NCBI GenBank assembly: GCA_041663045.1
Contig: JBAZRH010000002.1
Coordinates: 73,179-113,698 of the forward strand
Reading direction: 5' to 3'
Source: Minisyncoccota bacterium
GTDB lineage: Bacteria > Patescibacteriota > Minisyncoccia > Phycocordibacterales > GWA1-40-21
Length of the DNA: 40,520 nucleotides
Part shown: one piece after another, positions 613-33,963 of the stretch
How positions within the stretch are numbered: the stretch's first letter is position 1
How the letters are laid out: each line of letters starts with the position of its first letter
Position numbers and translations under genes: made by a program
Notes under the pieces: model-generated
Seen by the model: only the letters and a program-made list of their open reading frames with translations
Told to the model about the DNA's origin: nothing
Database searches by the model: none

Positions 613-646
613 AAAAGCCCCGCCAATCAGAATTGGCGGGGCTTTT
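613..646. terminator. Intrinsic terminator-like hairpin, 15-bp perfect stem, CAGA loop (ATCAGAAT apex)
   Basis: aaaagccccgccaat-caga-attggcggggctttt, 20 bp downstream of the SWIB gene stop, with A/T tails on both sides. Confidence 0.8.
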
Positions 647-666
647 CTTTTTCTATTTTAAAACTT

Positions 667-921
667 TTATGACAAATGTTTTGAAACGAGCTTTGTCATC
701 TCAAACATATTCACCACTGCCTTTCCGCCGAAAACTTTCTTCAAAGCTGCGTCGGCATTGATATTTCTCTTATTCTTTGGATCCTGAAGATTGTTTTTCT
801 TTATATAAACCCAAAGACCTTTTACAACTTCCGATCTTGGCATCGGACCATTTCCCACAACGGCGGCTAGCTCGGCGCTAACTGTCATTGGCTTCATAAA
901 TGCTGATGTTTTTTCTGCCAT
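667..921 (-). CDS. Stand-alone SWIB/MDM2-domain protein
   Basis: 84 aa with AFMKP..VS.ELA.VVG..PMPRSEVVK.LW.YIKKNNLQDPKNKR.INAD..LKKVFG, the bacterial SWIB pattern. Confidence 0.9.
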   Translation of the reverse strand: MAEKTSAFMKPMTVSAELAAVVGNGPMPRSEVVKGLWVYIKKNNLQDPKNKRNINADAALKKVFGGKAVVNMFEMTKLVSKHLS

Positions 922-1076
922 ATTTTTTACCCGTTTCCGCCTAGGGCGAATTGGGCTTAATTAACTAATAACGCTACCCCGCTAGTATAACATAAATCTC
1001 CCCTAGGAACATCACGCAAAATCAATAGTCGATTATAGCCTTCTTTTCAAGATAATCTCAAAATGTTACACGGGAA

Positions 1077-1421
1077 TCAGAAACTAAACCAATAGTATGT
1101 AGATATAACAAGATCTATACCCAAAAATATTATCAGAGACAACAAGATAAAAACGGTATTTATCACGTAAATATACTTAGCAAGAGTAATCCTTCTAATA
1201 AATAAAGCGAGTTTAAAACTTAAAAAAGGTACAAAGATAAATAAGTAAGAAAGAAGTAACCATGTTATATATTCGCTTGAACTGTTACTTTGAAAAAATC
1301 CGTACGGGAACAGAAAAAAACTCCCATAAAATACACACCAATAAAGTGTATAGACTAAAATTATAAATGCTGTCTTACCCCACCATGTATCTGTATGAAA
1401 AAAGTTACGAATAGATTGCAT
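1077..1421 (-). CDS. Small integral membrane protein (about 3 TM), unknown function
   Basis: 114 aa with three hydrophobic stretches; co-oriented and 21 bp downstream of the large lipase-domain gene. Confidence 0.65.
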   Translation of the reverse strand: MQSIRNFFHTDTWWGKTAFIILVYTLYWCVFYGSFFLFPYGFFQSNSSSEYITWLLLSYLFIFVPFLSFKLALFIRRITLAKYIYVINTVFILLSLIIFLGIDLVISTYYWFSF

Positions 1422-1441
1422 TTTCTATTTAATTATTATAT

Positions 1442-4400
1442 TTATAATATCTTTTTAATAAATAAAAACAAGTGTGACCAAAATCCTTTGAAGAGATTGG
1501 TAATAGTAGATTTGATATTAACTCCAGAATTTGCCACTGATGCCGTAAAATTCATGCCTGAAGATGTTGCTTTAATAGTCAATGCAGGTGTTGATGAGGA
1601 AATCGATACTTGTGAGATTCTCAAGATAGTTTTTTGCTTTGTCGTCTTTGTAGTAGGTGGTAAAACAGACAAATCTTGTAAAGAAGATGAGGAAACCAAC
1701 TGAGTGTTCTGAATAAATGACGTAGTGGATTGGCTTAATTGATTTGAGACTTGGTCTTCAGATCGGACAATCGCATTGTCTGAAGCAATCACGGGTGTAG
1801 AAGTGGCCGATGATGCTTCAGTGTCATCGGTAACTAAATTCTTTCTTGAGCCCCTTCTCGCTGTTGGCGTCGGAATCTTAATCTCTTGGATTAACTCTGT
1901 ATTCCCTACATTATCTGTTGAGAAAAATAATACAGTCTTACCACTTGCATTAAATGGTTCTGTATATGGTATCCAGCTCTTTCCATCAAGAGAATACTCT
2001 ACGCTAAGCACACCAGTATTGTCATCTACTGACATGAGAGAAACTGTCCCGTTTGCAGATATAGAACTTGTAGTTTCCGGCGGTAATAAGTCAGAAATGC
2101 TATAAGTGCTACTCGCCACAGTCTCTACCGATGGAGAAGATGCCGTTTCAAAAAGCCCGTCATTGTTTTCATCTTCTTGAATTATATACTCGGTACTCGT
2201 AGATGAAATATATATTTGAGAATTTGAAGAAATGTCTTTGATAGGAACTCTATGCCAATATGTCTTTCTAACTTTTGTATCATTGCTACCGATTTCCTCT
2301 ACTGACAAATCATAGCTAGGAACATTCTCTATCGGTTTTATAAGTATCCGATAATTTTGAGTATTGTCTGGAAGAAAAGCAAAAGTATTATCGGAGATTC
2401 TGTCATAACTTACCCCAGAAATATTGTATTCAATATCTCCTGTGTCAGTCGGACCAGTATGATTCCCGACATTATCATAAATATCCAAGACTACGGAGCT
2501 GTGAGTAGATATAACACGGCCTGTGATATCACAAAAGCCTGTACTTGTAGAAATATTTGAAAGTATTGATGTATCGTCGCCGGTTAATATTGAGAAAATG
2601 GTTTCAGGCACACCAGATGTTGATGGTAATTCTGAATGAATAGCCTCTTTTACATAATAATTATGATCACCAAATGGACCTACAGCAGAATATAGAGGCA
2701 CCGTACCATCACCATTTACATAGTCTATATTATAGTCGTCCACGGTTTCCTGCCAAAGAGATGTCCAAGTCTTTTTCTTCTTTGCCGTAATGCTCCCAAT
2801 AGTTTTGGTCAGGCCGCAACCAGAAAAGTTATAAACGTCAGTGTCCTTCAAGTCGAAATTATCAATATCTTCATGCAAATCTTCTGCCTGAAGAAAGAGC
2901 GCAGAATTTATACCGTGACTAATCATAAAATCTTTTGTCTCATCATAATCCAACCATTTGCTAGAGCCTGATGTAGTATCGTATATATATTCGTTTGGTA
3001 CAGAATTACCCTTACTTGAATCCCCATCTACATAGGCTCGGCTTGGTAATAAGTCAAAGACGGAGGGGAAATTTTGAGAAATAAATTTTAACCTTGGTTG
3101 GCTAAGTAAGTGTACATTACCAGAAATGATACTCATCCCCATATCATCTCCATACATCAAAGCTTTAAAAGCCTTCGGCGAGCCAAGGTGTGGGGTGCCA
3201 ATAAAAAATATTTTATCAACTTTATCCGCACCATTGTCTGCCACATATTTTTGAGTCACAAGCCCGCCCATGGAGTGAGCGATGATTTCCACTCTGGATG
3301 AACCCGTTTCAGAAATTACCTCGTCTATTTTCTCTTTTAATAATATCGCACTTTCAGCATTACTTTTTCGCCAATCGTAAGGAAAAACAAAAAGGTCTGT
3401 GCCTTCAACATATCCGTCAGAAGTCAAAGTGGAAATCAATCCATCAAATGTATTGGAAACAGTTCTCCCTACAAGATCAACCTTTCTCAAAATATCCCCT
3501 ACCTTCATCGGGAAAGCTGGATTTTCAGTACCATCAGAATTAAATGAAAGGTCATTTAAAAATTCATCAAAAAAAGAAAGTATAAGCTTGCTAATATTCG
3601 GCCAGATTTGTGAATTATCATCATAGTCTTTAGAAAGCTGTGTACCCATAATCCCCGGAATAATAATCACTGGGTTTCTTTTCTTACTCGGATCAACTGT
3701 AAGCCATGGCTTATATTCGACGTTCTTTGATATCTGATTTGCCGTACCAGAAGCATTTGTAAGTAAATTAAATGGTCCGGAAACATCTCCCCACCAATTT
3801 CCAACAGCTTTTATCGGGGCTGTCGGCACCTCAACCCATATCTGATAATAACCTGTTCTACCTATATACGTATCAAAGTATGAAGCATCGTTATAAATCC
3901 CGTATAAAGTATTATCTTTTATAATACTATTTTCTATATCAATATTTGCATTTGCACCAAAATTTTCTATACCATTATTATTTCCGGATATCTCACTACC
4001 AGATATCTTTATAATAGAATTGTCGGAAGTAAGAATACCGTCCCCAAGAAAATTCTTAATCTCTGTGTTCTCTATATTTGCTTCTACTTTCCCAAAAATT
4101 TCTACAGCTGTAGTATTACCATCACTTATTACAGAATTGGCGATATTTAAAGTCGTCGTTGCGTATTCATAGTCTCCGCTAAAAATATTAAAAACCCCGC
4201 CATAAGCAGAACCGGCTAAGATATTTTTCACAGATGAGTCAGAAAAACTCAAACTACTACCGTTAAATATCTCAATAACCAAATCCGCAGTAATATTATT
4301 AAAACTAGAACTAGCGATGTTGATGGAGCTGTTATTAAAGGCGTATACTACTGCCGAATTACTGTTATTTAATACACCCTCTATTCTTGAATTATACATG

Positions 4401-5362
4401 TTCATTGAGCTATCTTCAGAAATACCAAATACTTCCTCTGTGTTTTCTATATCTGTACTCACTATACTTATGGAGCTGTTGTTAGAGACTTCAAATAAAT
4501 TACGAACGTTTTCTATATCTGAGTTACTTATCTCTACAAAACCGTTGTCATAAATCTCAGTGGTATTATATCCATCAATATTTTTTATTGTTGAGTTATA
4601 TATCTTTATAGAACTACTCCTTAAAATACAAAAAGCCTCTTTGCTGATATCTTCTAAACTCGAATTTGAAAAAACTAAAGAACTTCCCTCATATATACCA
4701 AACCCGTATCCGCTTATATTTTTTACATTAGATGATTCTATTGATACCGTGCTAGTTGAAATAGCTGTAATGGCATCCCTAGAAAGATTTAGAATGTTGC
4801 TATTTTTTATAGAAACAGTGCTCTCGCTTAAGCTTAGCCCGTCAACACAATCTGTAATTGTCACTGATTCGAGTAATCCTGTCCCGGAATCACTTTCCAA
4901 GGCTAGATTGGCATAAGATATTTTGGTATTGTTTATTTCATAACTTCCCCCATCTAGAACTTTGATACCTCCCCAGCTCGAATACATAGGTGTCCAATCT
5001 GAATCATACCCATCTGTATCTCCCCCAACAGAATCGTCATACAGAGATGTAAAATAAATCTCTTCACCGAGTGCACCATTTGCAACTATTTTCCCTGAAA
5101 TATTTAAATCACTATAATCCTCAAACTTAATAACTGTTCCGGGCTCGATTGTCAGGGTTGCTCCACTATCAATAAAAATATCCTTATAAATGACGTACGG
5201 ACTATTATCTCTAGTCCAAATGGTATCTTCTGAAATATGATAATCATCCGCATCATCACCAAGAGAGATGTCAGTTTGTGCAAAAACTCTATTAAAAGGA
5301 AATAAAAAAGACAGGAAGAATAATCCTGCAAAAAGTAAAGAACAAATTTTAAAATTTCTCAT
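1442..5362 (-). CDS. Large secreted protein: signal peptide + right-handed beta-helix repeats + LCAT/PGAP1-like alpha/beta-hydrolase (lipase) + Ig-like domain + Ser/Thr-rich tail
   Basis: N-terminal hydrophobic leader ending VFA; ~22-aa periodic repeats (SIKIYNSTIKNI, VEISNSDIENV, MNMYNSRIEGV); hydrolase motifs PVIIIPGIMGT, PYDWR, AHSMGG, GTPHLGSP, GDGTVP, IHSELP; PPETT...VEYSLDG..W..Y..PF; hydrophobic/basic C-terminus. Confidence 0.8.
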   Translation of the reverse strand: MRNFKICSLLFAGLFFLSFLFPFNRVFAQTDISLGDDADDYHISEDTIWTRDNSPYVIYKDIFIDSGATLTIEPGTVIKFEDYSDLNISGKIVANGALGEEIYFTSLYDDSVGGDTDGYDSDWTPMYSSWGGIKVLDGGSYEINNTKISYANLALESDSGTGLLESVTITDCVDGLSLSESTVSIKNSNILNLSRDAITAISTSTVSIESSNVKNISGYGFGIYEGSSLVFSNSSLEDISKEAFCILRSSSIKIYNSTIKNIDGYNTTEIYDNGFVEISNSDIENVRNLFEVSNNSSISIVSTDIENTEEVFGISEDSSMNMYNSRIEGVLNNSNSAVVYAFNNSSINIASSSFNNITADLVIEIFNGSSLSFSDSSVKNILAGSAYGGVFNIFSGDYEYATTTLNIANSVISDGNTTAVEIFGKVEANIENTEIKNFLGDGILTSDNSIIKISGSEISGNNNGIENFGANANIDIENSIIKDNTLYGIYNDASYFDTYIGRTGYYQIWVEVPTAPIKAVGNWWGDVSGPFNLLTNASGTANQISKNVEYKPWLTVDPSKKRNPVIIIPGIMGTQLSKDYDDNSQIWPNISKLILSFFDEFLNDLSFNSDGTENPAFPMKVGDILRKVDLVGRTVSNTFDGLISTLTSDGYVEGTDLFVFPYDWRKSNAESAILLKEKIDEVISETGSSRVEIIAHSMGGLVTQKYVADNGADKVDKIFFIGTPHLGSPKAFKALMYGDDMGMSIISGNVHLLSQPRLKFISQNFPSVFDLLPSRAYVDGDSSKGNSVPNEYIYDTTSGSSKWLDYDETKDFMISHGINSALFLQAEDLHEDIDNFDLKDTDVYNFSGCGLTKTIGSITAKKKKTWTSLWQETVDDYNIDYVNGDGTVPLYSAVGPFGDHNYYVKEAIHSELPSTSGVPETIFSILTGDDTSILSNISTSTGFCDITGRVISTHSSVVLDIYDNVGNHTGPTDTGDIEYNISGVSYDRISDNTFAFLPDNTQNYRILIKPIENVPSYDLSVEEIGSNDTKVRKTYWHRVPIKDISSNSQIYISSTSTEYIIQEDENNDGLFETASSPSVETVASSTYSISDLLPPETTSSISANGTVSLMSVDDNTGVLSVEYSLDGKSWIPYTEPFNASGKTVLFFSTDNVGNTELIQEIKIPTPTARRGSRKNLVTDDTEASSATSTPVIASDNAIVRSEDQVSNQLSQSTTSFIQNTQLVSSSSLQDLSVLPPTTKTTKQKTILRISQVSISSSTPALTIKATSSGMNFTASVANSGVNIKSTITNLFKGFWSHLFLFIKKIL

Positions 5363-5483
5363 TCAAAAAAATAATTATGCAACTTTATAAAAAATTCTGC
5401 TACATAATAGCATCCATTTTATAAACAAAAAAATACTTCAGTTGTTGATAACTGAAATATTTTTCTTATCCCTGCTCTTTATT

Positions 5484-6683
5484 TTATTTCTTCAGTGTCA
5501 AATCTATCTTCTTCGCCAACTTCACCATATCTTTTTCCTTCGCTCCCCTTGTGGTCTCACCGGCGGTGCCAAGGCGAATACCGGAAGGGTCCATTGGGCT
5601 TCTGGTTTCGTTTGGAATAGTGTTTTTGTTTACAATTATTCCAGCCTTTTCAAGCTTGTCGCTAGCTTCTGCTCCACTCATCCCCTTTCCACCCATCCAA
5701 GTGTCCATAAGTATCAAGTGGCTATCTGTTCCACCAGAAATAATCTTCCAGCCAAGCTTTTTCAACTCATCGGCAAGAACTTTTGCATTTTTCACTACTT
5801 GCTTTGCGTATTTTTTGAACGTCGGTGCTGATGCTTCTTTCAAAGCTACTGCCACAGCGGCGATTTGATTCATGTGTGGACCACCTTGAAGGCCTGGGAA
5901 AACAGCTTTGTCTATCAAATCTCCAAAAGATATTTCATTACCTTTTGCGCTTGTCTGTGTTTTGTCGCGTCTTGCAAAGATAAGAGCGCTTCTAGGCCCA
6001 CGGAGGGTTTTGTGCACTGTCGTCGTCACCACATCTGCATATTCAAATGGCGACGGATATGCGCCACCGGCAACAAGTCCAGCAAAGTGCGACATATCTA
6101 CCATAAGTATTGCGTGAGATGCATCGGCGATTTCTCTAAACTTTTTGAAATCAACAATCCTTGGATATGCTGTGTAGCCGGCGATTATCATATTTGGCTT
6201 TTCAGCAATTGCCAGCTTTTTTAGTGCGTCATAATCTAGGACTTCCGTATCTTTATTTACGCCATAAGGGACTTGAGTCCAGATTTTCCCAGTAGCAGAG
6301 ACTTTATGACCATGTGTAAGGTGGCCTCCGTGATCAAGCGACATCCCCATCACCTTTCCTCCCTTTGGTACAAGTGCAAGGTATACAGCTAGGTTTGCTG
6401 GTGAGCCCGAAAGTGGTTGAACATTTACATGCCATTTTTCTCCCGCTAAGCCGAAAAGTTTTAATGCCCTTTCTTTGCAAAGCTCCTCCACCTTATCCGT
6501 AAAGGTCTGTCCTTTGTAATATCTCTTCCCAGGATACCCTTCCGAATATTTATTTGTAAACTTTGAGCCAAGCGCTTCGAGAACATCCTCCGAAACATAA
6601 TTTTCAGATGCAATCAGAGAAATTGTCTTTTCTTGCCTCGCCTCTTCCGCCTTTATGAGCTTTTCAATTTGTTTGTCTTTCAT
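5484..6683 (-). CDS. glyA: Serine hydroxymethyltransferase
   Basis: LIASEN, NKYSEGYPGKRYY, GGHLTHG, TTTVHKTLRGPR (PLP lysine), FPGLQGGP, SGIRLGT. Start moved to MKDKQ (6683). Confidence 0.97.
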   Translation of the reverse strand: MKDKQIEKLIKAEEARQEKTISLIASENYVSEDVLEALGSKFTNKYSEGYPGKRYYKGQTFTDKVEELCKERALKLFGLAGEKWHVNVQPLSGSPANLAVYLALVPKGGKVMGMSLDHGGHLTHGHKVSATGKIWTQVPYGVNKDTEVLDYDALKKLAIAEKPNMIIAGYTAYPRIVDFKKFREIADASHAILMVDMSHFAGLVAGGAYPSPFEYADVVTTTVHKTLRGPRSALIFARRDKTQTSAKGNEISFGDLIDKAVFPGLQGGPHMNQIAAVAVALKEASAPTFKKYAKQVVKNAKVLADELKKLGWKIISGGTDSHLILMDTWMGGKGMSGAEASDKLEKAGIIVNKNTIPNETRSPMDPSGIRLGTAGETTRGAKEKDMVKLAKKIDLTLKK

Positions 6684-6828
6684 AATACTTAAATGGGTCA
6701 ATCTCGATAAGTGATACTGTCAATTCTAAATTAAATAACAATTAATAACAAGCTTGTTTTTTGTGATATAAACGATATGATAAACATGGACTAAATTGGT
6801 CCTTTAAAAGTAAAGAGGATTAAGACAT

Positions 6829-7656
6829 ATGAAGACATACAATAATGTATTAAAACAAATTCTGGAAAATGGCATTGACCGAAAAGGAAGAAACGCCGTA
6901 ACCAGAGCTTGTTTTGCGATTCAGATGCGATTCAACATGGAAGAAGGCTTCCCGGCAGTAACTACCAAACAACTAGCGTTTAACGCCGTTAAGGGTGAGC
7001 TGCTCTGGTTCTTGGAAGGAAGTGGTAGTGATGAACGTCTGAAAGAAATAATGGGCAAAGATCGCACAATCTGGACGGATAATGCCGAAGCCCCTTATTG
7101 GAAGCCGAAAGCAAAATTCCCCGGAGATCTTGGGAGAGTATACGGTGTCCAATGGAGAACTTGGAAAAAACCTGACGGCACGACGGTAGACCAGATTGAA
7201 AATCTCATAAACAAACTCAAGACCGACCCAAATGACCGACGGCTTATCGTTACGGCTTGGAATCCAGGAGAGCTTGATGAGATGGCACTGCCACCTTGTC
7301 ATATGATTTTCCAATTCTTCGCTGCTGACGGCAAATTGTCCTTGCATATGACCCAACGTAGTTGCGATATGTTCTTGGGGGTTCCATTCAATATTGCTTC
7401 TTATGCTTTGCTACTAGCGATGGTGGCACAAGTGGTTGGCATGACACCTCATGAGTGTGTTCTCACCCTCAATGACGCGCATATCTATCATGAGCATTTT
7501 GATGCAGTAAAAGAACAGCTCTCTCGTGAACCGATGAAGCTTCCAAAGCTCTGGCTCAATCCGGAAGTGAAAAATATTGATAAATTCACAATGGATGACA
7601 TTAAGCTGGTTGACTATGAGCATCATCCGACAATCAAGGCAAAAATGATTGTCTAA
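6829..7656 (+). CDS. thyA: Thymidylate synthase
   Basis: ELLWFL, LGRVYGVQWR, RRLIVTAWNP, ALPPCH (catalytic Cys), QRSCDMFLGVPFNIASY, DAHIY. Confidence 0.97.
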   Translation: MKTYNNVLKQILENGIDRKGRNAVTRACFAIQMRFNMEEGFPAVTTKQLAFNAVKGELLWFLEGSGSDERLKEIMGKDRTIWTDNAEAPYWKPKAKFPGDLGRVYGVQWRTWKKPDGTTVDQIENLINKLKTDPNDRRLIVTAWNPGELDEMALPPCHMIFQFFAADGKLSLHMTQRSCDMFLGVPFNIASYALLLAMVAQVVGMTPHECVLTLNDAHIYHEHFDAVKEQLSREPMKLPKLWLNPEVKNIDKFTMDDIKLVDYEHHPTIKAKMIV

Positions 7657-7670
7657 CCATAAAGGGAAAT

Positions 7671-8165
7671 ATGATATCAATCATCGTTGCGATAGCTAAA
7701 AATGGGGTCATCGGAAAAGGAGACGATCTGCCTTGGAAGCTTTCTGATGACCTCAAGCATTTCGCCAAGGTTACTAAAGGTCACACTGTAATCATGGGAC
7801 GAAAGACCTATGAGTCCATAGTGAAGAGGTTGGGACATGCATTGCCAAACAGAAGGAACATTGTTGTCACCTCACAGGTAGATTTCAAAGCTCCGAGTTG
7901 TATGGTTGTCCGTTCAGTGAAAGAAGCCTTGAGCAAGTTACCTTTGGAAGATGAGGCTTTTGTTACTGGTGGAGGTGAGATTTACAGGCAATTTCTACCA
8001 TTAGCAAATAAGTTGTATATTACTGAAGTCGATGTTGAGTGTGATGGTGATGTCTTTTTTCCTCCCTATTCGAAAGACGGTTGGAAATTGATATCGTCAG
8101 AACATCACAATAAAGACGAAAAGAATTCGTACGACTTTACTTTCCTAGAGCTTGTCCGAAAATAA
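7671..8165 (+). CDS. folA: Dihydrofolate reductase
   Basis: IIVAIAKNGVIG..DLPWKLSDDLKHF, VIMGRKTYES, LPNRRNIV, GGGEIY, GDVFFP; directly after thyA. Confidence 0.96.
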   Translation: MISIIVAIAKNGVIGKGDDLPWKLSDDLKHFAKVTKGHTVIMGRKTYESIVKRLGHALPNRRNIVVTSQVDFKAPSCMVVRSVKEALSKLPLEDEAFVTGGGEIYRQFLPLANKLYITEVDVECDGDVFFPPYSKDGWKLISSEHHNKDEKNSYDFTFLELVRK

Positions 8166-8183
8166 AATGATCGACCAATAACA

Positions 8184-8211
8184 AAAAGGGCACCCCCGCG
8201 GATGCCCTTTT
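8184..8211. terminator. Bidirectional terminator between convergent folA and tmk
   Basis: aaaagggca...tgccctttt GC-rich stem with A/T tails on both sides. Confidence 0.7.
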
Positions 8212-8221
8212 CTTTTGGTAT

Positions 8222-8848
8222 TTATTTTCCAAAAGATTTATCCAATACTGACTTGAAGTCCTCCCAAACTTTTTCAATCGGCTGGCTAGCGTCTATCACT
8301 GCATGGGGTACGTGCTCGATGAATTCCTTGTATCCCGCTCGTAGAGCGTTATGAAAATCAATCTTTCGCGCTTCAAAATGGTTCAACTCCTCACCACCTT
8401 GATTATTCTTGCGTGCCAAACCAATAACCGGATCGATATCAAAATACACATACAAGTCCGGCTTGAGATCACCTAGATAAAAATCGCGCATTTGCCAGAA
8501 AAGATTCTCCAATTCCCTTGCTCCTTGAGCCACTATTTGATAAGCAAATGTAGACGAATCAAAACGATCTGAAACCACAGTCTTCCCCGCGTCCAAAGCT
8601 GGAGAGATTGTATTTTTCAAATGATCCGCTCGAGCTGCCCAAAACAGACCAAACATAGTCTTAGCATCCGCCTGTCCTGCATTTGGAGACTTCAAAATCA
8701 AATTGCGAATCTCCTCAGCATAGGGTGATCCCCCTGGTTCACGAGTAAGCACGAGGTTCTCTCCCAGTAAACTTTGCAACTTTTTGAGTTGCGATGTCTT
8801 ACCAGCCCCTTCTCCACTATCAACCACTATGAATAATCCTTTTTTCAT
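8222..8848 (-). CDS. tmk: Thymidylate (dTMP) kinase
   Basis: P-loop DSGEGAGKT, TREPGG, DRFDSSTFAYQ, PDLYVYFDIDP. Start at MKKGLF (8848), preceded by AGGAG. Confidence 0.9.
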   Translation of the reverse strand: MKKGLFIVVDSGEGAGKTSQLKKLQSLLGENLVLTREPGGSPYAEEIRNLILKSPNAGQADAKTMFGLFWAARADHLKNTISPALDAGKTVVSDRFDSSTFAYQIVAQGARELENLFWQMRDFYLGDLKPDLYVYFDIDPVIGLARKNNQGGEELNHFEARKIDFHNALRAGYKEFIEHVPHAVIDASQPIEKVWEDFKSVLDKSFGK

Positions 8849-8928
8849 CCTATCTCCTTTTGAAATTGTTAAGATCACTAATCTAGCTAAACATTATCAG
8901 ATTAAAAAAACATTAGCAATCTTTAAAA

Positions 8929-9483
8929 TTATTTGGAAAGTTTTATAATCAAATCATCTAAATTTTTAAACAAATCATCTATAGAGCCCTCATTTATAAT
9001 CGTAAAATCAGCCCTAGATATTGGCCCCGCTTGATGAAGTTTCTCTATCTGTGAATAATCTCTTGAAATTACTTCTTCCATTTTAAGAGGCCTGTGTAAA
9101 CGCGTTGATAATCTTTCTATTCTAATTTCCGGTGAAGAATATATGGCAAGTGTCTTAAAAGCATCTCCAAATTCTTTCTTCATCTCAAGATATTCTTCCC
9201 AACTATACAAACTTTCAACGATAACGCTCGATTGTCTAAAAAGTTCCTTGACTTTTGACATATTTACAACGGCCATTGCTGCCATCCCATATTTTTCTCT
9301 TAACTCCTCTCTAATTTTCTTTTCGTTTCCTTCATTTATTGGAAGTCCTTGTCTTTTCAATTCATCAAAAGTCCCCTGACCAAAATATACTTTTGGCCAA
9401 CTGGTTTTCTTCATTAAATATTCAACGACTTCTGTCTTGCCGGCTCCTGGAAGTCCGACTACTGCTAAAATAATTTTCTTCAT
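8929..9483 (-). CDS. P-loop nucleoside-monophosphate/dephospho-CoA-kinase-like protein (UPF0200/AAA_17-like)
   Basis: N-terminal VVGLPGAGKT, then IRIERLSTR..RP, RDYSQIE..GPISRADFTIINEG, typical of NMP-kinase-fold proteins. Confidence 0.7.
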   Translation of the reverse strand: MKKIILAVVGLPGAGKTEVVEYLMKKTSWPKVYFGQGTFDELKRQGLPINEGNEKKIREELREKYGMAAMAVVNMSKVKELFRQSSVIVESLYSWEEYLEMKKEFGDAFKTLAIYSSPEIRIERLSTRLHRPLKMEEVISRDYSQIEKLHQAGPISRADFTIINEGSIDDLFKNLDDLIIKLSK

Positions 9484-9485
9484 AG

Positions 9486-9980
9486 TTATTTCATATTCGT
9501 ATAAGTCACCATCTCTTCATTAATCAGTGTGTATTCTACACCTGCTTCTTTGAAAATATCTTTCGTCCTTTCTCCAGCATGATAATCTTTGGCTGCTAAC
9601 ACCTTTTTTATGCCAGCATTTATTATCATCTTTGCGCAAGCGTAGCACGGTGTCATCTTTACATACAAAGTCGCCCCCTCCGTACTCATCCCAAAACGAG
9701 CCGCTTGTACTATGGCATTTTGCTCTGCATGAGCGGTCCTTATACAATGTTTTGATTGAGTGCCGTCTTCTTGGACAACTGTATGCATCTCATGTCCCAC
9801 CTCATCACAATGTTTGCATCCGGCTGGAGCTCCAGCGTACCCTGTCGCAATAATTTTCTTATCTTTGACGATAATACAGCCGGCCCTGCCCCTGTCACAG
9901 GTTCCCCTCTCTCCTATTGCATCCATTATTTTCAAGAAATATTCGTCCCAAGATGGTCTTTTGTGAGTGGTATTTTCCAT
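9486..9980 (-). CDS. dCMP deaminase (ComEB-like)
   Basis: RPSWDEYF, TCDR..AG, HAEQNA and PCYAC zinc motifs. Start moved to MENTT (9980). Confidence 0.92.
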   Translation of the reverse strand: MENTTHKRPSWDEYFLKIMDAIGERGTCDRGRAGCIIVKDKKIIATGYAGAPAGCKHCDEVGHEMHTVVQEDGTQSKHCIRTAHAEQNAIVQAARFGMSTEGATLYVKMTPCYACAKMIINAGIKKVLAAKDYHAGERTKDIFKEAGVEYTLINEEMVTYTNMK

Positions 9981-10037
9981 AGACTTAATTTTACTCCAGA
10001 AAAAGAAAAAGCAAAGAGTAGACAAGGAGAAAAAAAC

Positions 10038-10078
10038 AATGCAAAAGGCGGCGCACGAAGTGCGCCGCCTTTTGCATT
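10038..10078. terminator. 19-bp perfect hairpin with c-GAA-g triloop
   Basis: aatgcaaaaggcggcgcac-gaa-gtgcgccgccttttgcatt. Confidence 0.6.
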
Positions 10079-10096
10079 TCTTATTTCACTTCCACC

Positions 10097-10123
10097 CACG
10101 CATACTTTTTTGCTAAAAAGTTG
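10097..10123 (-). repeat. Partial inverted copy of the repeat family A sub-hairpin
   Basis: cacgcatacttttttgctaaaaagttg matches the reverse complement of the family A core at 25/27 positions; the two changes are one compensatory pair (A-T to C-G). Confidence 0.7.
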
Positions 10124-10132
10124 TCTGGGCCC

Positions 10133-10320
10133 TCCTTACAGGAGCAGTATACCTTTCACATTTTGAATACAAAACGTTCAAGGTCTTTCATTTGGGTCCC
10201 ATCCCAAATCTCAACCTCGGCTCGTCAGCCTCCGGCCGGTTGAGGTTAAAACAAAAAGTGCGTTCAGAACGCACTTTTTTGCTATTTAACCTCAATTCCT
10301 TACAGGAACAGTACACCTTT
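10133..10320. repeat. 24-bp direct repeats (10133-10156, 10297-10320) enclosing nested hairpins
   Basis: tccttacaggagcagtataccttt vs tccttacaggaacagtacaccttt (2 mismatches). Inside: ttgaggttaaa/tttaacctcaa enclosing aaaaagtgcgt-tcaga-acgcacttttt. Confidence 0.65.
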
Positions 10321-10377
10321 TGGATACTTTATTTCGTAATACTCATAAACTATCTCAAAAGGTCCGTTGAAGTCAAA

Positions 10378-10405
10378 AGAAAACCGCGTTTAGACGCGGT
10401 TTTCT
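10378..10405. terminator. Terminator after rplK
   Basis: agaaaaccgcgt-ttag-acgcggttttct, a few bases downstream of the rplK stop. Confidence 0.75.
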
Positions 10406-10410
10406 CTTAA

Positions 10411-10833
10411 TTATTTGACTTCAACGCCCATAGATCTTGCTGCGCCTTCTACCATTTTCATGGCGGCGTTTATATCATTTGCATTCATATCTACCATTTT
10501 CTTCTCTGCGATGGCTTTTACTTGAGCTTTTGTCATGGTTCCAACCTTCTTTGTATTTGGCTTACCTGAACCCTTTTCCTGTCCGATTGCCTTCAGTATC
10601 ATACTGGCTGTCGGAGGAGTTTTCAGTATAAAATCGTAGGTTCTATCTTCATAAACTGTGATAACAACAGGAAGTATTTCACCGATATTTGCTTTTGTTG
10701 CGGTATTAAATTTGTTTACGAAATCTCCGATATTTATACCTGCCTGACCAAGAGCTGGACCGATTGGTGGAGCTGGTGTAGCTTTACCTGCCGGTATCTG
10801 AAGTTTTAATTTTTTTGATATTTTCTTTGCCAT
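10411..10833 (-). CDS. rplK: 50S ribosomal protein L11
   Basis: [26 protein letters not shown]...[16 protein letters not shown]. Confidence 0.98.
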
Positions 10834-13576: not shown

Positions 13577-13690
13577 AGACTTGCGAGATGTCGTTTTTTT
13601 GGAGACTCTCGGAGCACGACTGGTGCGAGAGGGAGCAAATTTTTAGCAAAAAATTATGCGTGCTCCAAAAAGGCGACATCTCGCAAGTCT
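13577..13690. repeat. Repeat family A, copy 1: 78-bp core (13596-13673) inside a 17-bp perfect terminal inverted repeat
   Basis: Core identical to 15683-15760; arms agacttgcgagatgtcg / cgacatctcgcaagtct; starts 2 nt after the methyltransferase stop. Confidence 0.9.
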
Positions 13691-15672: not shown

Positions 15673-15768
15673 AATAGTATTCTTTTTGGAGACTCTCGGA
15701 GCACGACTGGTGCGAGAGGGAGCAAATTTTTAGCAAAAAATTATGCGTGCTCCAAAAAGGATACTATT
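15673..15768. repeat. Repeat family A, copy 2: same 78-bp core (15683-15760) with a different outer stem
   Basis: Core identical to copy 1; arms aatagtat / atactatt; flanked by gcgagc on both sides; just after the metG stop. Confidence 0.9.
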
Positions 15769-15778: not shown

Positions 15779-17332
15779 CTACTCTACCCGTAAGAACAAC
15801 GGTTTCTCCGGATTTTTATCTTCTTTTATCAAAGTTAAAATCGCTTTTGAGGTTTCCGGCATTATTGGCAAAAGTTTAAGGGTAATTCCTCTCAAATGTG
15901 TGAGAAGATACACCAAATCTTTTTCTCCTCCAACTTTATCTGTCTTTATCTTTGCAAAAGGTTTTTCTTTTTGAATATATCCGTCAAGTGATTTTATATC
16001 CGCCCAGATTTCATCGCAATAATTTTTGATTTCAAATTTCTCAAGAAAATCTACTTTCATATCCGAAGACCAGAATTCAGAAGCTGTATCACCCACTTTC
16101 ACGCCATTTACCGTCGCCATTTTCATAATCCTACTCACCAGATTCCCCAAACCATTTGCAAGATTGGCATTGTAAGCTTCTTTGAAAGATTCAGCAGACA
16201 TCGGGCCATCTTCAAAAGTATTTATTTCTCTTGCGACAAAATATCGCAGTGCATCTGTGCCGTATTTTTGTATTAGCTCTACCGGACCGACGACATTGCC
16301 GATACTTTTGCTCATCTTCACTCCACCAGGGCCAGTAACAAAGCCATCTATCACGACCGTCTTTGAATTCGGCAAACCACAAGCCATAAGCATTGCTTGC
16401 CACATTGCAGACTGCTGGCGAAGATTGTCTTTTCCACAGTATTGCACCATACCGCCGGTATTTACATGCCATTTCTCATACTTCTTCATATCGCTCGGCC
16501 AGCCGATCGCCGAAACATAGTTTACAAGTGCATCAAACCAGACATACATTGTGTGTTCGCTATCTCCCGGCACTTCTATACCCCATGGCATTTTGCTCTT
16601 TAATCTTGAAATACTGAAATCCTGCAAACCTCTTTTCACAAAAGCTTTTATCTCATTGAATCTAAAATCTGGAATCACAAAATCCGGATTCTTCTCATAA
16701 TATGCCAAGAGTTTTTCGCCAAATGCGGAAAATCTAAAAAAGTAATTCTCTTCGTCGCGGATTTCAAGAGTGAGATTCGGATGATCAGGGCATTTGCCGT
16801 CTGTAAGGTCGGAATCTGTCTTTTCAAGCTCGCAACCGACGCAATATTTCGTTTGATAATTCTTTTTATAAATATAGCCATTCTTATCGCAAACTTTCCA
16901 AAAATCTTCGGCTGTTTTTATATGATTCTCGTCTGTCGTCCTTATGAAATTGCGAGTAATACCCTCTTCTTCTGTAAGTCCAAGAAGTTTTATAAGCTCT
17001 TTGAATTTGCCGGTGTAGAAATCGACAAATTCTTGTGGTGTCTGCCCAGCTTCTTTTGCTTTTTGAAAAATCTTTTGGCCATGCTCATCTGTGCCGGTAT
17101 TAAAAAACACCTCATACCCCGTGAGCTTTTTGTAGCGAGCGATAATATCCGCACGCACCATTTCAAGAGCATGCCCCATATGCGCTTCGGCATTTACATA
17201 CGGCAGAGTAGTAGTTATGTAGAAGTAGCCTTTGGCTCTTATAGTTCGACTTCGCTCGGACATCGTGCCCACATCAGAATGTGGTCGTGCCGCTCCTCGC
17301 TCGTCGAAATAGAATAATTTTTTCCCTTTCAT
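15779..17332 (-). CDS. metG: Methionine--tRNA ligase (short form), with a ~30-aa N-terminal insertion
   Basis: YITTTLPYVN..HMGH, GTDEHGQK, YCVGCE..CPDH knuckle, YVWFDAL, KMSKS. ATG overlaps the upstream TAA (TAATG). Confidence 0.96.
   Translation of the reverse strand: MKGKKLFYFDERGAARPHSDVGTMSERSRTIRAKGYFYITTTLPYVNAEAHMGHALEMVRADIIARYKKLTGYEVFFNTGTDEHGQKIFQKAKEAGQTPQEFVDFYTGKFKELIKLLGLTEEEGITRNFIRTTDENHIKTAEDFWKVCDKNGYIYKKNYQTKYCVGCELEKTDSDLTDGKCPDHPNLTLEIRDEENYFFRFSAFGEKLLAYYEKNPDFVIPDFRFNEIKAFVKRGLQDFSISRLKSKMPWGIEVPGDSEHTMYVWFDALVNYVSAIGWPSDMKKYEKWHVNTGGMVQYCGKDNLRQQSAMWQAMLMACGLPNSKTVVIDGFVTGPGGVKMSKSIGNVVGPVELIQKYGTDALRYFVAREINTFEDGPMSAESFKEAYNANLANGLGNLVSRIMKMATVNGVKVGDTASEFWSSDMKVDFLEKFEIKNYCDEIWADIKSLDGYIQKEKPFAKIKTDKVGGEKDLVYLLTHLRGITLKLLPIMPETSKAILTLIKEDKNPEKPLFLRVE
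17243..17311. repeat. Palindromic element in frame within the metG 5' end
   Basis: TTCGAC...GTCGAA arms, internal ccacATCAGAATgtgg hairpin (17269-17284), duplicated GAGCGA and GCACGA motifs. Confidence 0.65.
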
Positions 17333-24862: not shown

Positions 24863-24917
24863 CTTAGGATGTTTTATTCCAATAAATTATACCATAGAAA
24901 TAAAATATTGGTTGTGG

Positions 24918-24963: not shown

Positions 24964-24983
24964 ATTTTACAATCATATACTAT

Positions 24984-27872: not shown

Positions 27873-27981
27873 ATCTTTAAATAAAAAATAAAGGACTAAT
27901 AAATGAGAGTTATCTCATCTAGTATTATACCAGAAGAGAGGGTGGCTCGGGAGTACCCTCGCCACCACGATAGTGGATAAC

Positions 27982-30060: not shown

Positions 30061-30142
30061 TGGGTGTATTATACCACTACTGAAGTTCGCTGGAAAGCGA
30101 ACTCGTTTTTTTAGAAAAATTTAATAGTATAATGAAAATAAA

Positions 30143-31348: not shown

Positions 31349-31359
31349 GGACGAAATCC

Positions 31360-31394
31360 ATAAAAGGTGGGGCGCGAAGCGCCCCACCTTTTAT
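31360..31394. terminator. Terminator after nusA, c-GAA-g triloop
   Basis: ataaaaggtggggcgc-gaa-gcgccccaccttttat. Confidence 0.8.
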
Positions 31395-31478
31395 TATCTC
31401 TTGTTTGACTTTATTAATATATGGAATATAATTTAACTGTAAAAATCCTGATTATAAGACTTAAATCTAAATAAGACT

Positions 31479-32084: not shown

Positions 32085-32112
32085 CTTCATTAAAAGACAA
32101 TAAGATAATAAT

Positions 32113-32358
32113 ATGGATGTAAACAATACAAATAAAAATGGTTCGGGGGCGATAATAGGAGCTATAATCGTGATCGTTGTCCTTATCGCTGGGGGGTTCT
32201 ACTTCTACACCCAGAGAATAAACAAGCAGAGACAATTTGAAGCGATGAAAAATACGGTTACGCAATCTACTTCTGTAACAAAGGATATAGATTCTTTACT
32301 CATCGAGGCCTCGTCGACAGATCTAAATAATCTAGGCGATGGAATAGAAAATCTATAA
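32113..32358 (+). CDS. Small single-TM hypothetical protein
   Basis: GAIIGAIIVIVVLIAGGFYFY TM followed by a polar tail. Confidence 0.7.
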   Translation: MDVNNTNKNGSGAIIGAIIVIVVLIAGGFYFYTQRINKQRQFEAMKNTVTQSTSVTKDIDSLLIEASSTDLNNLGDGIENL

Positions 32359-32551
32359 AAGCTCGCTCGTATCACCATTTTTCATCAGTGTGCCTTCACC
32401 CCAAAGAAAATCATAGTCGCTGTTCTATACGAAAAATCAAGAACTCGCTGTATCAGAATACAGCTCAAACAACTTGATTTTTCTAAACAGCTCCTTGATT
32501 TTACTTGGGGTTCTCGGCAATGATGAAAAATGGTGATATTCGCTCGCTTAC
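32355..32551. repeat. Repeat family B, copy 1 (197 bp, nested hairpin, 18-bp terminal inverted repeat)
   Basis: About 95% identical (10 mismatches) to 33767-33963; arms tatcaccatttttcatca / tgatgaaaaatggtgata; ATCAGAAT apex at 32452-32459. Confidence 0.9.
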
Positions 32552-32639
32552 AGATTCCCCCACAGCAAAAATATTTATAAATCCTCGCTCGCTAACTTTT
32601 TTGCTTTTTTTCCGATTTTCAGCTACACTCATTTTTAAT

Positions 32640-33698
32640 ATGAATAAGAAAATATATAAAATCGTAGATACAAAAAAGCTTCCGGATTGCGAAGTTGAGA
32701 TAACAGCAGAGATTTCAGCCGAAAATCTTGAAAGCTATAAAGCAAAAGCCTTCAAGAAAATACAAGAAGTCGCTGAATTACCCGGCTTTAGAAAAGGCAA
32801 GGTCCCTGAAGCCATGCTCAAGGAAAAGATCGGCGAGATCGGCATCTTGGAAGACGCTGGTGAGATGGCTATAAACGACTGCGCCATAGAGATAATCGCC
32901 GAGTCAAAAGTCTCTCTTCTTGGTAGTCCAAATATTACAATATCAAAAATCGCTATCGGTGCCCCGCTTGAATTCAAGATAAAAGTCTCCACAATGCCGG
33001 AAGTAAAACTTGCCGACTATAAGAAAATCGCCAAAAAAGAAAATTCAAAAGAAGAAAAGATTGAAGAAGTTACAGAAAAGCAGATAAATGACACGATTGA
33101 GGAGATAAGAAAAATGTATGCCGAGCAGAATCATTCACATAAGCCGGGCGAGGAACACAAGGAAGGCGAAAATCTCCCCCTCCCCGAAATAAATGACGAA
33201 TTCGTAAAAAAACTTGGCGATTTCAAAGATGTTGCAGATTTCAAAGTAAAGCTCAAAGAAAATATCGCCAAAGAAAAGGAATTTAAGGCAAAAGACAAAA
33301 AGCGATTGACGATAGTTGAGAAAGTTATAGAAGACTCAAAGATAGAAATGCCGAAAGCTCTCGTGGAAAATGAGCTTTTCAAAATGCAGGCGCAATTTGA
33401 AGATGATATTTCAAAAATGGGTTTGAAACCGGAAGATTATTTGAAACATATTAAGAAAACTTGGGATGATTTGAAAAAAGAATGGCGACCGGATGCCGAA
33501 AAAAGAGCAAAATTGCAAATAGTTTTGCATCAGATTGCTACGAATGAAAAGCTTGAGGCCGACAAAGATATGGTAGAAAAAGAGACGAAGCATCTCGTAG
33601 AATATTATAAAGGTGCCGATCCAGAGAGAACCCGAGCCTATGTTGAAATGCAATTAATAAACGCTAAAGTCTGGAAATTTCTTGAGGAAGCCAAATAG
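32640..33698 (+). CDS. tig: Trigger factor, apparently lacking the FKBP PPIase domain
   Basis: GFRKGKVP ribosome-binding motif, then EINDEFVKKLG and the C-terminal domain (IEMPKALVENE, AEKRAKLQIVL). Start MNKKI (32640); the longer ORF start lies in repeat B. Confidence 0.9.
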   Translation: MNKKIYKIVDTKKLPDCEVEITAEISAENLESYKAKAFKKIQEVAELPGFRKGKVPEAMLKEKIGEIGILEDAGEMAINDCAIEIIAESKVSLLGSPNITISKIAIGAPLEFKIKVSTMPEVKLADYKKIAKKENSKEEKIEEVTEKQINDTIEEIRKMYAEQNHSHKPGEEHKEGENLPLPEINDEFVKKLGDFKDVADFKVKLKENIAKEKEFKAKDKKRLTIVEKVIEDSKIEMPKALVENELFKMQAQFEDDISKMGLKPEDYLKHIKKTWDDLKKEWRPDAEKRAKLQIVLHQIATNEKLEADKDMVEKETKHLVEYYKGADPERTRAYVEMQLINAKVWKFLEEAK

Positions 33699-33713
33699 CT
33701 TGTAGCTAGCCTG

Positions 33714-33745
33714 CCCCGAGATTCATTCTGATGAATTTTTCGGGG
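33714..33745. other. Hairpin after tig with the reverse ATCAGAAT apex
   Basis: ccccga-g-attcat-tctg-atgaat-ttt-tcgggg. Confidence 0.55.
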
Positions 33746-33766
33746 GGAGTTTCTTGAATCCGTAAA

Positions 33767-33963
33767 ATAAAAGCTCCCTCATATCACCATTTTTCATCAG
33801 TGTGCCTTCACCCCAAAGAAAATCATAGTCGCTGTTCTATACGAAAAATCAAGAACTCGCCACATCAGAATGTGTCTCAAACAACTTGATTTTTCTAAAC
33901 AGCTCTTTGATTTTACTTGGGGTTCTCGGCAATGATGAAAAATGGTGATATTCGCTCGCTTAC
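33767..33963. repeat. Repeat family B, copy 2
   Basis: Direct repeat of 32355-32551 at offset 1412; apical stem altered by three compensatory pair changes. Confidence 0.9.

Follow-up and report, generated by a model that had tools for sequence, protein, structure and literature searches.

The window (the whole stretch of 40,520 nt that was analysed) contains six copies of the octamer ATCAGAAT, which begin at positions 626, 3533, 17273, 32452 and 33864 on the plus strand and at 33725 on the minus strand. These copies, together with one further hairpin tipped by the hexamer TCAGAA, belong to the following features:

613–646, minus strand: terminator hairpin with a 15-bp perfect stem, after the SWIB gene (667–921, minus strand)
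3533–3540, plus strand: coding copy of ATCAGAAT inside a 1306-aa gene, not at a hairpin tip, which served as an internal control
10243–10290, plus strand: hairpin with TCAGAA at its tip (10264–10269), a doubtful member (the 10264 hairpin)
17220–17309, minus strand: insertion in metG, 90 nt in frame, adding 30 codons after MKGKKLFY
17240–17311, plus strand: mini-element core inside the metG insert, composed of TATAGTTCGAC, TTCGCTCG (17251–17258), an arm, ATCAGAAT (17273–17280), an arm, CTCGCTCG (17296–17303) and TCGAAATA
32355–32551, plus strand: copy 1 of repeat B (B1), a long nested hairpin upstream of tig
33714–33745, plus strand: tig 3′ hairpin, 16 nt past the tig stop codon, reading GCCCCGAGATTC-ATTCTGAT-GAATTTTTCGGGG
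33767–33963, plus strand: copy 2 of repeat B (B2), downstream of tig and adjoining a DGR cassette

As a word, the octamer is not enriched in the window: the six copies compare with 3.43 expected, a number reached in 16 of 100 shuffles, and TCAGAA is likewise unenriched (43 copies vs. 37.9 expected). The octamer is self-closing (AT/CAGA/AT), which gives any hairpin formed around it a 2-bp head start, and its placement was judged against a base rate of 2.2% for self-closing octamers in the window. Five of the six copies constitute the tip of a perfect hairpin, whose stem extends for 3–13 bp past the octamer, and ATCAGAAT ranks first among all self-closing octamers in this respect (binomial p = 3e-8, or 1e-6 when B1 and B2 are merged). 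With the B1, B2 and metG copies left out, two of the remaining three are still located at tips (p = 0.0014). Four of the five tip hairpins also stand out from shuffled sequences in folding analysis (z-scores from −4.1 to −7.5), and the control copy at 3533 has a stem extension of 0 and is unpaired in the predicted fold. These figures come from only about 4–6 independent tip-bearing copies. The initial annotation had assigned the octamer to the apex of five hairpins, correctly for every coordinate; the non-hairpin copy at 3533 was missing from its list. Occurrence at apices is above chance, as it had supposed, and extends beyond the window; the same tip was found in loci L143/L142 and L026.

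The heptamer TCGCTCG occurs 12 times in the window (2.3 expected; reached in none of 100 shuffles). This motif had been noticed close to several of the hairpins, which is correct for metG, B1 and B2, the only hairpins that it flanks; the SWIB, tig 3′ and 10264 hairpins lack it. In all five cases in which it lies within 110 nt of ATCAGAAT, both are on the same strand, and it is present on both sides of the octamer in two cases, compared with 0.006 expected among 120 occurrences. Since same-strand TCGCTCG accompanies all three, B1, B2 and the metG insert were assigned to one family; 15 nt, CCACATCAGAATGTG, are identical between the B2 and metG tips. The description of the stems as mostly unrelated is consequently correct only in part, B1 and B2 being copies of one repeat. 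This family, apparently undescribed, comprises small insertion repeats in which the ends and the tip are constant and the arms changeable.

The metG insert is bounded by a 5-nt direct duplication, TAGAA (17220–17224 and 17310–17314, plus strand); a target-site duplication was seen for this copy alone. The reading frame stays open through the insert, which is missing from orthologues, and MetRS structures align with MetG from residue 36 onward only. Empty sites were identified in MetG P0005 (L001, >90% identical) and in MetG of the sister species (L148, MKDKKLFYITTT), both without the insertion. The insert is single-copy in the source metagenome, where the metG contigs of other organisms diverge from the window at 17182–17221, ahead of the insert, of which they contain no copy. 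As a whole, it folds no better than shuffled sequences (z = 0.09). Only its 6-bp apical hairpin (CCACAT/ATGTGG) folds, and the arms on either side carry TCGTGCC as a direct, not an inverted, repeat.

In B1, TCGCTCG is located at 32363–32369 and 32540–32546, with one more copy at 32585–32591, and the tip (32452–32459) is closed by the stem GCTGT (32447–32451)/ACAGC (32460–32464). B2 has an intact right motif (33952–33958) and a decayed left one (CTCCCTCA); its tip (33864–33871) stands on CACAT/ATGTG, the same stem as that of the metG tip. The two copies differ at 10 of 197 positions, and seven of these differences fall within the eight stem positions beside the octamer (hypergeometric p = 5e-10); one end motif also differs. 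The apical changes form three compensatory pairs, all of them transitions. The stems had been described as covarying, and these pairs agree with that description, for which the B1/B2 comparison is the sole source.

Contig depth in the source metagenome, from groundwater, is 150–270 over repeat B, compared with 24–31 in the unique flanks (an approximately 6–10-fold excess), and about threefold for the exact B2 tip segment. One further copy of B has the same left arm up to position 33850, followed by another head. A blastn search for repeat B in 52 tig loci revealed no copy. The sister species lacks B1, B2 and the tig 3′ hairpin and carries other TCGCTCG-flanked palindromes at these sites; the B1 site is occupied by a different palindromic element, also enclosed by GCTCGCTC ... 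TTCGCTCGCT. The tig gene call has an N-terminus that is over-extended into repeat B.

Alignment A2 revealed that the metG mini-element and those of L143/L142, located upstream of ileS in another species, have in common TATAGTTCGAC-TTCGCTCG ... ATCAGAAT ... CTCGCTCG-TCGAAATA, with arms that are unrelated between the two. The L118 mini-element contains the L143 arms with TAAA as its tip. The arms are the sole hypervariable part of the aligned mini-elements, and arm length in the family ranges from 13 nt (mini-elements) to about 80 nt (repeat B). The inverted ends (TTCGAC/GTCGAA, AAGC/GCTT, TTAGC/GCTAA) are short and vary from copy to copy. In relation to the neighbouring genes, the metG and L143 elements are antisense to B1/B2 and L118. 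A different, composite element bearing GTC-ATCAGAAT-GAC is present in L031, L039, L041 and L049.

A relaxed search for further TCGCTCG-bounded mini-elements yielded mostly noise from GC-richer genomes, the convincing cases being those of the window, the L143 group and L118, and there were no matches to the pattern in viral contigs. No parent IS with matching terminal inverted repeats was found. Comparison of 30 ORFs of the window with Pfam identified no transposase or recombinase gene, RAYT and TnpA included, and no candidate for a protein that binds the tip was identified either. With Rfam at its gathering score, only tRNAs were detected in 122 kb (the window plus seven tip-bearing loci), none of them in the window, and no family matched the tip hairpins. 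Short Logan contigs from the genome to which the window belongs (L137 and L138) added 3.9 kb and no new copies. A literature search found no description of such an element family.

The tip of the SWIB hairpin (626–633) reads AUUCUGAU in the SWIB transcript. The hairpin has a predicted folding energy of −19.1 kcal/mol (z = −7.5) and the features of an intrinsic terminator: it is GC-rich, directly follows the stop codon and is accompanied by a T-run. It is identical in an independent Logan assembly (L138), and in the sister species (L139–L141) the hairpin and the promoter-like stretch that follows it are 100% identical. Because the flanks are conserved as well, in a locally very conserved region, this comparison is uninformative on covariation; with its identity in the sister species and its lack of TCGCTCG, the SWIB hairpin behaves like an ordinary conserved terminator. 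Loci L142–L147 and 80 further SWIB loci among those listed contain other terminators with diverse loops, or no hairpin after the gene. The tip was found after SWIB in none of these 80, and the hairpin is shared with the sister species alone.

The tig 3′ hairpin (tip at 33725–33732; z = −4.2) also reads AUUCUGAU in the transcript of its gene, and its T-run is weak. It lies within a 71-nt stretch that is missing in the sister species (L002–L004), where the tig stop codon is directly followed by AAGCTCGCTCG. An identical copy of the hairpin is present in a second sample (X2), from a wetland, and most of the tig relatives listed have a different hairpin 3′ of the gene. Among 40 tig 3′ regions the tip occurs only in the window and in L026, where ATTCTGAT is at the tip. 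This sequence presumably matches the anticodon loop of tRNA-Gln(CUG); mimicry of that loop was considered and rejected, as the stem register (4-nt loop) is one off from a 7-nt anticodon loop. GCCCCG, present at the feet of three terminator-type hairpins, was likewise discarded as a family mark, since G/C runs look common elsewhere (SWIB terminators, inspected by eye).

The 10264 hairpin had been proposed as a sixth member. It folds well (z = −5.5) and is nested in a longer palindrome (TTGAGGTTAAA...TTTAACCTCAA) within a repeat-packed intergenic region of 385 nt; at this locus the sister species has 122 nt and one simple terminator. All that it has in common with the other hairpins is TCAGAA, a common hexamer, and it is within chance expectation.

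Among 80 other species of Paceibacteria (1.12 Mb), four of 51 copies of ATCAGAAT are located at tips (p = 0.05), i.e. the tip is not enriched there, which indicates that it is restricted to this lineage. In the tig relatives, three of 40 copies are at tips once homologous copies are merged (p = 0.09). The octamer is present about once per 11–22 kb in these relatives (43 copies in 456 kb and 51 in 1.12 Mb), mostly outside hairpins.

In our view the best explanation of these observations, held with about even confidence, is that ATCAGAAT represents the conserved apical module of lineage-restricted, gene-less palindromic insertion elements of small size within this Paceibacteria genome. Read along one strand, a full element would consist of a basal inverted repeat (e.g. 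TTCGAC/GTCGAA or AAGC/GCTT), TCGCTCG, an arm, ATCAGAAT, a second arm, TCGCTCG and the other basal half. Copies of the elements come and go between close relatives. The elements are multi-copy, lie between genes or in frame within one, and occur in either orientation to transcription. Their modules reassort: (i) ends and tip are found with different arms, (ii) arms with a different tip, and (iii) an outer arm with a different head. The initial claim of a fixed tip on different stems is sound in so far as the association exceeds chance, although most of the exact cases are homologous members of one element family.

The elements may move as DNA by means of an enzyme encoded elsewhere. Such an enzyme would recognise a folded single strand, in which the two identical TCGCTCG motifs would lie opposite one another in a symmetric internal loop below the tip; the tip could be kept because it is part of what is recognised, or through descent alone. 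For the element-borne copies, a mobiliser acting in trans, whether of the REP/HUH type suggested in the initial annotation or another, is plausible, given their presence or absence between relatives, the end motifs on the same strand and the occurrence of either orientation to genes. HUH transposition makes no target duplication, and the 5-nt duplication at the metG copy weakens the HUH reading. Instead of matching by coincidence, the SWIB and tig 3′ hairpins most likely are related to the tip module or have received it; this is the weakest step of the explanation and an unproven one.

A more elaborate form of the same idea, to which we attach a low probability, is a process acting at the hairpin tip itself: an enzyme would bind the TCGCTCG pair and ATCAGAAT, and then insert, swap or re-template the intervening sequence. 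Four observations would be explained in this way: ends and tip that recur while the arms are unrelated, arms that recur beneath a changed tip, an outer arm shared by copies that differ in the head, and the burst of paired changes restricted to the four base pairs below the tip of B. If this were true, the variable arms might be an address or cargo, and CPR bacteria would possess single-strand mobile elements of a new, structure-guided kind.

A narrower explanation, which we find rather improbable though it carries appreciable weight, is that B1, B2 and metG form one small repeat family and that the rest is coincidence, the SWIB, tig 3′ and 10264 hairpins being ordinary terminators with chance loops; there would then be no wider family in which a fixed tip tops unrelated stems. 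The textbook terminator after SWIB, with its conserved flanks and no TCGCTCG, agrees with this, as do the diverse loops or missing hairpins at the SWIB loci of 80 other species, the lack of tip enrichment in those species (4 of 51 copies), the commonness of TCAGAA and the weak enrichment in relatives after merging of homologous copies. Coincidence does not readily account for two of three octamers outside the repeat family lying at tips against a rate of 2.2%, for the occurrence of the tip 3′ of tig in L026 too, where the stem is a different one, or for the octamer enclosed in GTC/GAC in the composite element.

It is unlikely, though worth weighing, that the loop is read in RNA, with a protein or a loop–loop contact recognising AUUCUGAU at transcript 3′ ends or leaders and selection preserving the loop as the stems drift. 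Precedents for RNAs in which the loop is kept and the stem drifts are the GGA loops bound by CsrA and IRE loops. All six orientable hairpins without TCGCTCG (SWIB, tig 3′, L026, L028, L041 and L049) read AUUCUGAU in the sense direction (two-sided p = 0.03), the three B1/B2 stem changes are transitions on both sides, as would arise via G-U intermediates, and conservation of the SWIB hairpin in the sister species is complete. Against this, the element-borne copies occur in both orientations (metG and L143 vs. B1/B2 and L118), the orthologous terminators of other species lack the tip, the sequencing runs located for this organism are all of DNA, and neither UCUG nor CAGA is known as a stable or protein-binding tetraloop.

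TIGR arrays, found in CPR bacteria and their phages, consist of edge/variable/loop/variable/edge units arranged in tandem beside tas, a gene for a Nop-domain protein, and their edge and loop repeats start with UG and finish with CCA (PMC12045711). The unit layout of the elements described here is of similar size (8-nt edge, 13–15-nt arms, 8-nt loop; cf. PMC12045711), and only the arms are hypervariable. It could be imagined that they are guide-like modules, similar to a TIGR unit or bridge RNA, in which the arms provide an address. We consider this very improbable, and membership of TIGR arrays was rejected: the units are solitary and not in arrays of 5–15, box C/D motifs (UG...CCA) are missing from edge and loop, no gene for a Nop-domain protein (Tas) was found in the window, one copy is translated inside metG, and the arms, which are partly self-complementary, exceed the TIGR spacer length of 9 nt (at most 12).

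The initially suggested DNA-uptake or homing signal for a type IV pilus/competence machinery, consistent with the T2SS/T4P E and F genes in the window and with the frequent location of the uptake sequences of other bacteria in terminators, is rejected as extremely improbable, because uptake signals are strongly over-represented words and this octamer is not (6 copies vs. 3.4 expected in the window, about one per 11–22 kb in relatives, and mostly outside hairpins there).

The preferred explanation, that of palindromic insertion elements, invites comparison with known repeats. Like Rickettsia palindromic elements (RPE), the elements of the window are short, gene-less and palindromic, lie between genes or in frame in housekeeping genes, whose translation continues through them and so gains residues (here 30 codons at the MetRS N-terminus), and are present or absent between relatives. 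For neither is a transposase known. The comparison was made by description and membership is not claimed; the elements differ from RPEs in host phylum (Patescibacteria), in the same-strand TCGCTCG at both ends, the fixed 8-nt tip and the replaceable arms, and in the shorter mini-elements, with a core of about 70 nt.

With REP/REPIN–RAYT systems and the ends of IS200/IS605 they share a hairpin with a short conserved flanking motif on one strand, a location near gene ends, and properties that would suit recognition as folded ssDNA and movement of non-autonomous copies in trans, as is thought for those systems. REP/REPIN sequences consist of a GTAG tetranucleotide 5′ of a 20–40-nt imperfect palindrome, in tens to hundreds of mostly extragenic copies. 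No GTAG was found beside the hairpin feet in the window, which are flanked by TCGCTCG on both sides or by nothing; moreover, the loop is part of the conserved sequence here, and the metG copy has a 5-nt target duplication. Five tip hairpins were counted in 40 kb, and repeat B has about 6–10-fold depth in the source metagenome.

The short inverted termini and the target-site duplication of the metG copy are reminiscent of MITEs, and the reassorting modules of Correia, BOX and BIME mosaics (cf. boxA/B/C), some copies of which act as or at terminators. These differ in that the inverted repeats are here very short and variable, and the constant parts (TCGCTCG and the tip) internal. Resemblance to intrinsic terminators (a GC-rich stem just past the stop codon and, for SWIB, a T-run) is clear for the SWIB hairpin and less so for the one 3′ of tig. 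The loops of terminators are normally free to vary, whereas the 8-nt tip of both these hairpins is also that of a repeat family. The best reading is that the elements are a new variant of RPE/REP/MITE-like palindromic repeats.

Streamlining and a scarcity of mobile DNA are assumed for the ultra-small genomes of CPR bacteria (Patescibacteria). In the window and its relatives, however, small folded repeats turn over rapidly at the ends of genes and even within the gene for an essential aminoacyl-tRNA synthetase. The three landmarks (the basal inverted repeat, the same-strand TCGCTCG pair and the ATCAGAAT tip), with the variable middle between them, provide a search pattern for censuses of such elements across genomes and clades, which is also usable for finding the mobilising enzyme by co-occurrence. 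Gene calls can be corrected on the same basis, the over-extended tig N-terminus and the 30-residue MetG insert being examples. If the tip or end motifs are protein-recognition sites on folded single strands, they would give new access to the DNA or RNA transactions of organisms for which growth in isolation is not yet possible.

The octamer ATCAGAAT is distinguished in the window by its position and not by its count. It occurs 6 times, compared to 3.4 expected, which is not significant, and TCAGAA occurs 43 times (38 expected). At five of the six sites the octamer is the apex of a perfect hairpin, whose stem runs 3–13 bp past the octamer's own two A-T pairs; of the 3,013 octamers in the window that can close on themselves (XY....Y'X'), only 2.2% have a stem extension of at least 3 bp. 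ATCAGAAT ranks first among these octamers by stem extension, and the binomial probability of its placement at hairpin tips is 3e-8 (1e-6 with both copies of repeat B merged). Four of the tip hairpins fold far better than shuffled sequences (z from -4.1 to -7.5), while the 63-nt metG core folds no better than its shuffles (z = 0.09), with only the 6-bp tip hairpin folding. Besides the element inserted within metG, the tip hairpins are:

613–646, SWIB hairpin: classic terminator, without the heptamer TCGCTCG
32355–32551, B1: copy of repeat B upstream of tig, 95% identical to B2
33714–33745, tig 3′ hairpin: terminator-type, within 71 nt that have no counterpart in the sister species
33767–33963, B2: copy of repeat B downstream of tig, 95% identical to B1

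A 295-kb contig from a groundwater metagenome, which belongs to an uncultured Paceibacteria-type (Patescibacteria/CPR) bacterium, contains the window. Its housekeeping genes include SWIB, folate/thymidylate genes, rplK, nusG, metG, nusA, tig and polA; it also encodes a type IV pilus/T2SS-like cluster and what looks like a DGR. Genome-scale statements are based on the window, 3.9 kb of additional sequence of the same genome and approximately 1.7 Mb of related loci, together with the depth of contigs in the source metagenome. Since positions 1–10161, including the SWIB hairpin, are identical in an independent Logan assembly, and the tig 3′ and B2 segments are identical in a second sample, the hairpin sequences are not assembly artefacts.

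Judged by their sequences, three of the five tip hairpins (B1, B2 and metG) belong to one element family. The metG tip is the same as the B2 tip over 15 nt. TCGCTCG is enriched in the window (12 copies versus 2.3 expected; none of 100 shuffles reached 12) and flanks exactly these three hairpins, every time on the same strand as ATCAGAAT; its proposed proximity to several tip hairpins thus holds for them, but not for the SWIB terminator. Among 120 octamer occurrences, two have TCGCTCG on both sides (0.006 expected). When the metG element is aligned with one that lies upstream of ileS in a different species (L143/L144, with a decayed version in L142), fixed landmarks emerge on the left (TATAGTTCGAC-TTCGCTCG), in the centre (ATCAGAAT) and on the right (CTCGCTCG-TCGAAATA), separated by variable arms of 13–15 nt that are unrelated. 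The fixed apex on unrelated stems described in the initial annotation is therefore real, but the stems that carry it belong to homologous elements whose ends are fixed as well. Arms and tips reassort: a further species (L118) carries the L143 arms and the TCGCTCG pair with the tip TAAA. The landmark order of repeat B is that of these mini-elements, with arms of approximately 80 nt. Directly after B1 (32540–32591), a pair of TCGCTCG motifs spaced 45 nt apart encloses no hairpin and possibly represents the remains, or the empty frame, of another element. At 32505–32640, B1 also inflates the predicted N-terminus of tig: the longest ORF and the JGI call (392 aa) begin inside B1, whereas the NCBI call and homologues place the start at ATG 32640 (352 aa).

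Of the 10 positions at which B1 and B2 differ, seven are among the 8 stem positions adjoining the octamer, two are in the left TCGCTCG and one is elsewhere (p = 5e-10 for this clustering). Three pairs have been exchanged, all by transitions (T-A to C-G, G-C to A-T, T-A to C-G), and a fourth is broken in B2. Base pairing has therefore been kept, and the pattern of change departs strongly from neutrality. The B2 version of the apical stem is the metG version; the observed pattern would result either from compensatory changes made one step at a time or from replacement of the tip hairpin.

Comparison with related sequences indicates that the TCGCTCG-flanked elements are gained and lost between relatives. 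In metG, 90 nt have been inserted cleanly and in frame, accompanied by a 5-nt duplication (TAGAA), so that the N-terminus reads MKGKKLFY, 30 residues, then ITTT. At this site the sister species (MKDKKLFYITTT) and a >90% identical MetG (MQKKDSRDFYITTT) are insertion-free, and in metG contigs of other organisms from the same sample the match to the window ends at 17182–17221, before the insert, none carrying a copy of it. The empty site lacks TCGCTCG; this motif therefore travels with the element and is not part of the target. Turnover is also seen at the B1 and B2 sites, which in the sister species are occupied by different palindromic elements, one with a head of repeat family A and one related to window positions 10097–10226. 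Their flanks are of the same type: the element downstream of tig is flanked by AAGCTCGCTCG ... TTCGCTCGCT and that upstream by a shorter flank, GCTCGCTC ... TTCGCTCGCT. Repeat B is multi-copy: its contig depth in the source metagenome (150–270, versus 24–31 for unique flanks) suggests approximately 6–10 copies. The exact B2 tip segment has approximately 3x depth, and another B copy follows the left arm of B2 up to 33850 and then has a different head. Relative to genes the elements occur either way round, which speaks for a repeat at the DNA level and against an RNA signal.

The terminator-type hairpins behave differently. The SWIB hairpin and the promoter-like stretch 3′ of it are 100% identical in the sister species, in a locally very conserved region, whereas L142–L147 and the 80 further SWIB loci listed have unrelated hairpins with other loops. 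This hairpin is thus old and probably functional, and it is uninformative about the proposed covariation of stems, which is borne out by the three compensatory exchanges in one pair of copies, B1 and B2. Among 40 tig loci, ATTCTGAT lies at a hairpin tip 3′ of tig only in the window and in L026, where the stem is different. Without the three element-borne copies, three octamers remain, and two of them cap hairpins (p = 0.0014; post hoc, with small numbers); this is suggestive of an excess over chance outside the TCGCTCG family. All orientable tip hairpins outside this family (6/6, p = 0.03) read AUUCUGAU in the sense strand, which keeps an RNA-level role alive for them. ATTCTGAT (window 626–633 and others) is also the anticodon-loop sequence of tRNA-Gln(CUG) (A31–U38); this likeness was considered coincidental, the 4-nt-loop register being unfit for a 7-nt anticodon loop.

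Beyond the window, the tip rate is 6/43 octamers in 456 kb around tig from 52 metagenomic relatives, four of the six tips belonging to one other composite element, in which GTC-ATCAGAAT-GAC adjoins CCTCCTTGACTAAGGAGG; with its copies merged, the rate is 3/40 (p = 0.09). Across 80 named Paceibacteria/Minisyncoccia genomes (1.12 Mb) it is 4/51 (p = 0.05), and the approximately 51 kb seen of the sister species contains the SWIB tip copy only. The tip is therefore not confined to the window, recurring in L026, the composite elements and the sister SWIB copy, yet it characterises a narrow lineage and is no general signal of Paceibacteria. The composite palindromic element is common to relatives at 50–58% Tig identity and contains the GTC-ATCAGAAT-GAC hairpin followed by the anti-SD-like/SD-like CCTCCTTGACTAAGGAGG hairpin. 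Two copies lie just upstream of tig, and no Rfam match was found. Copies are located at:

L031, 2250–2450
L049, 5000–5130
L041, 6900–7100
L039, 480–700

Hairpin tips recurring likewise in the window are TTAGCAAA, CTAGCAAG and CTTCCAAG; ATCAGAAT is therefore one tip module among several in genomes with many palindromic repeats. Two window copies of family A (13596–13673 and 15683–15760) share a 100% identical core of 78 nt; in the sister species, copies occupy other sites (L002 11093–11216 and 20590–20702), there too between direct repeats of TCGCTCG. The family A tip TTTTTAGCAAAAA is found again at 10111, which puts TTAGCAAA at a hairpin tip in 3/4 occurrences. The tadA-rplK intergenic region (10026–10411) comprises 385 nt of nested hairpins, where the sister species has 122 nt and a single simple terminator; within the window region, 10097–10226 is 82% identical to the sister element upstream of tig (L002 9783–9908) and thus represents a third mobile repeat family.

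B2 abuts a region (34009–36507) whose layout looks like a DGR cassette, with an RVT_1 reverse transcriptase gene (34009–35058, minus strand) and a 115-nt repeat pair of 88% identity (35409–35523 and 35776–35890), one copy lying at the 3′ end of a 250-aa ORF. The cassette is wholly absent from the sister species, where polA follows tig after approximately 420 nt. The sister species carries an H+-pyrophosphatase gene (L002 6770–8773), absent from the window, between nusA and small ORFs upstream of tig.

Under the proposed mechanism, the elements would be non-autonomous, mobilised in trans and recognised as a folded strand. In such a strand the two identical TCGCTCG motifs would lie opposite each other as a symmetric internal loop, with the basal stem below it and the arms and then the tip above. 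The same-strand motifs fit a single-strand (HUH-like) route, such as that of the proposed HUH-type mobiliser, but the 5 nt duplicated at metG speak against this route and favour staggered-cut integration, and no mobilising enzyme was found among the window genes. A known RNA family (no Rfam match), TIGR arrays (PMC12045711) and a DNA-uptake signal, the word ATCAGAAT not being enriched, were set aside. The original observation is thus partly confirmed and its interpretation partly supported. No description of such repeats in CPR bacteria was found in the literature searched; the element-borne tip copies are of the same kind as RPE/REP/MITE repeats and represent a reasonably well-defined, apparently undescribed form of them.
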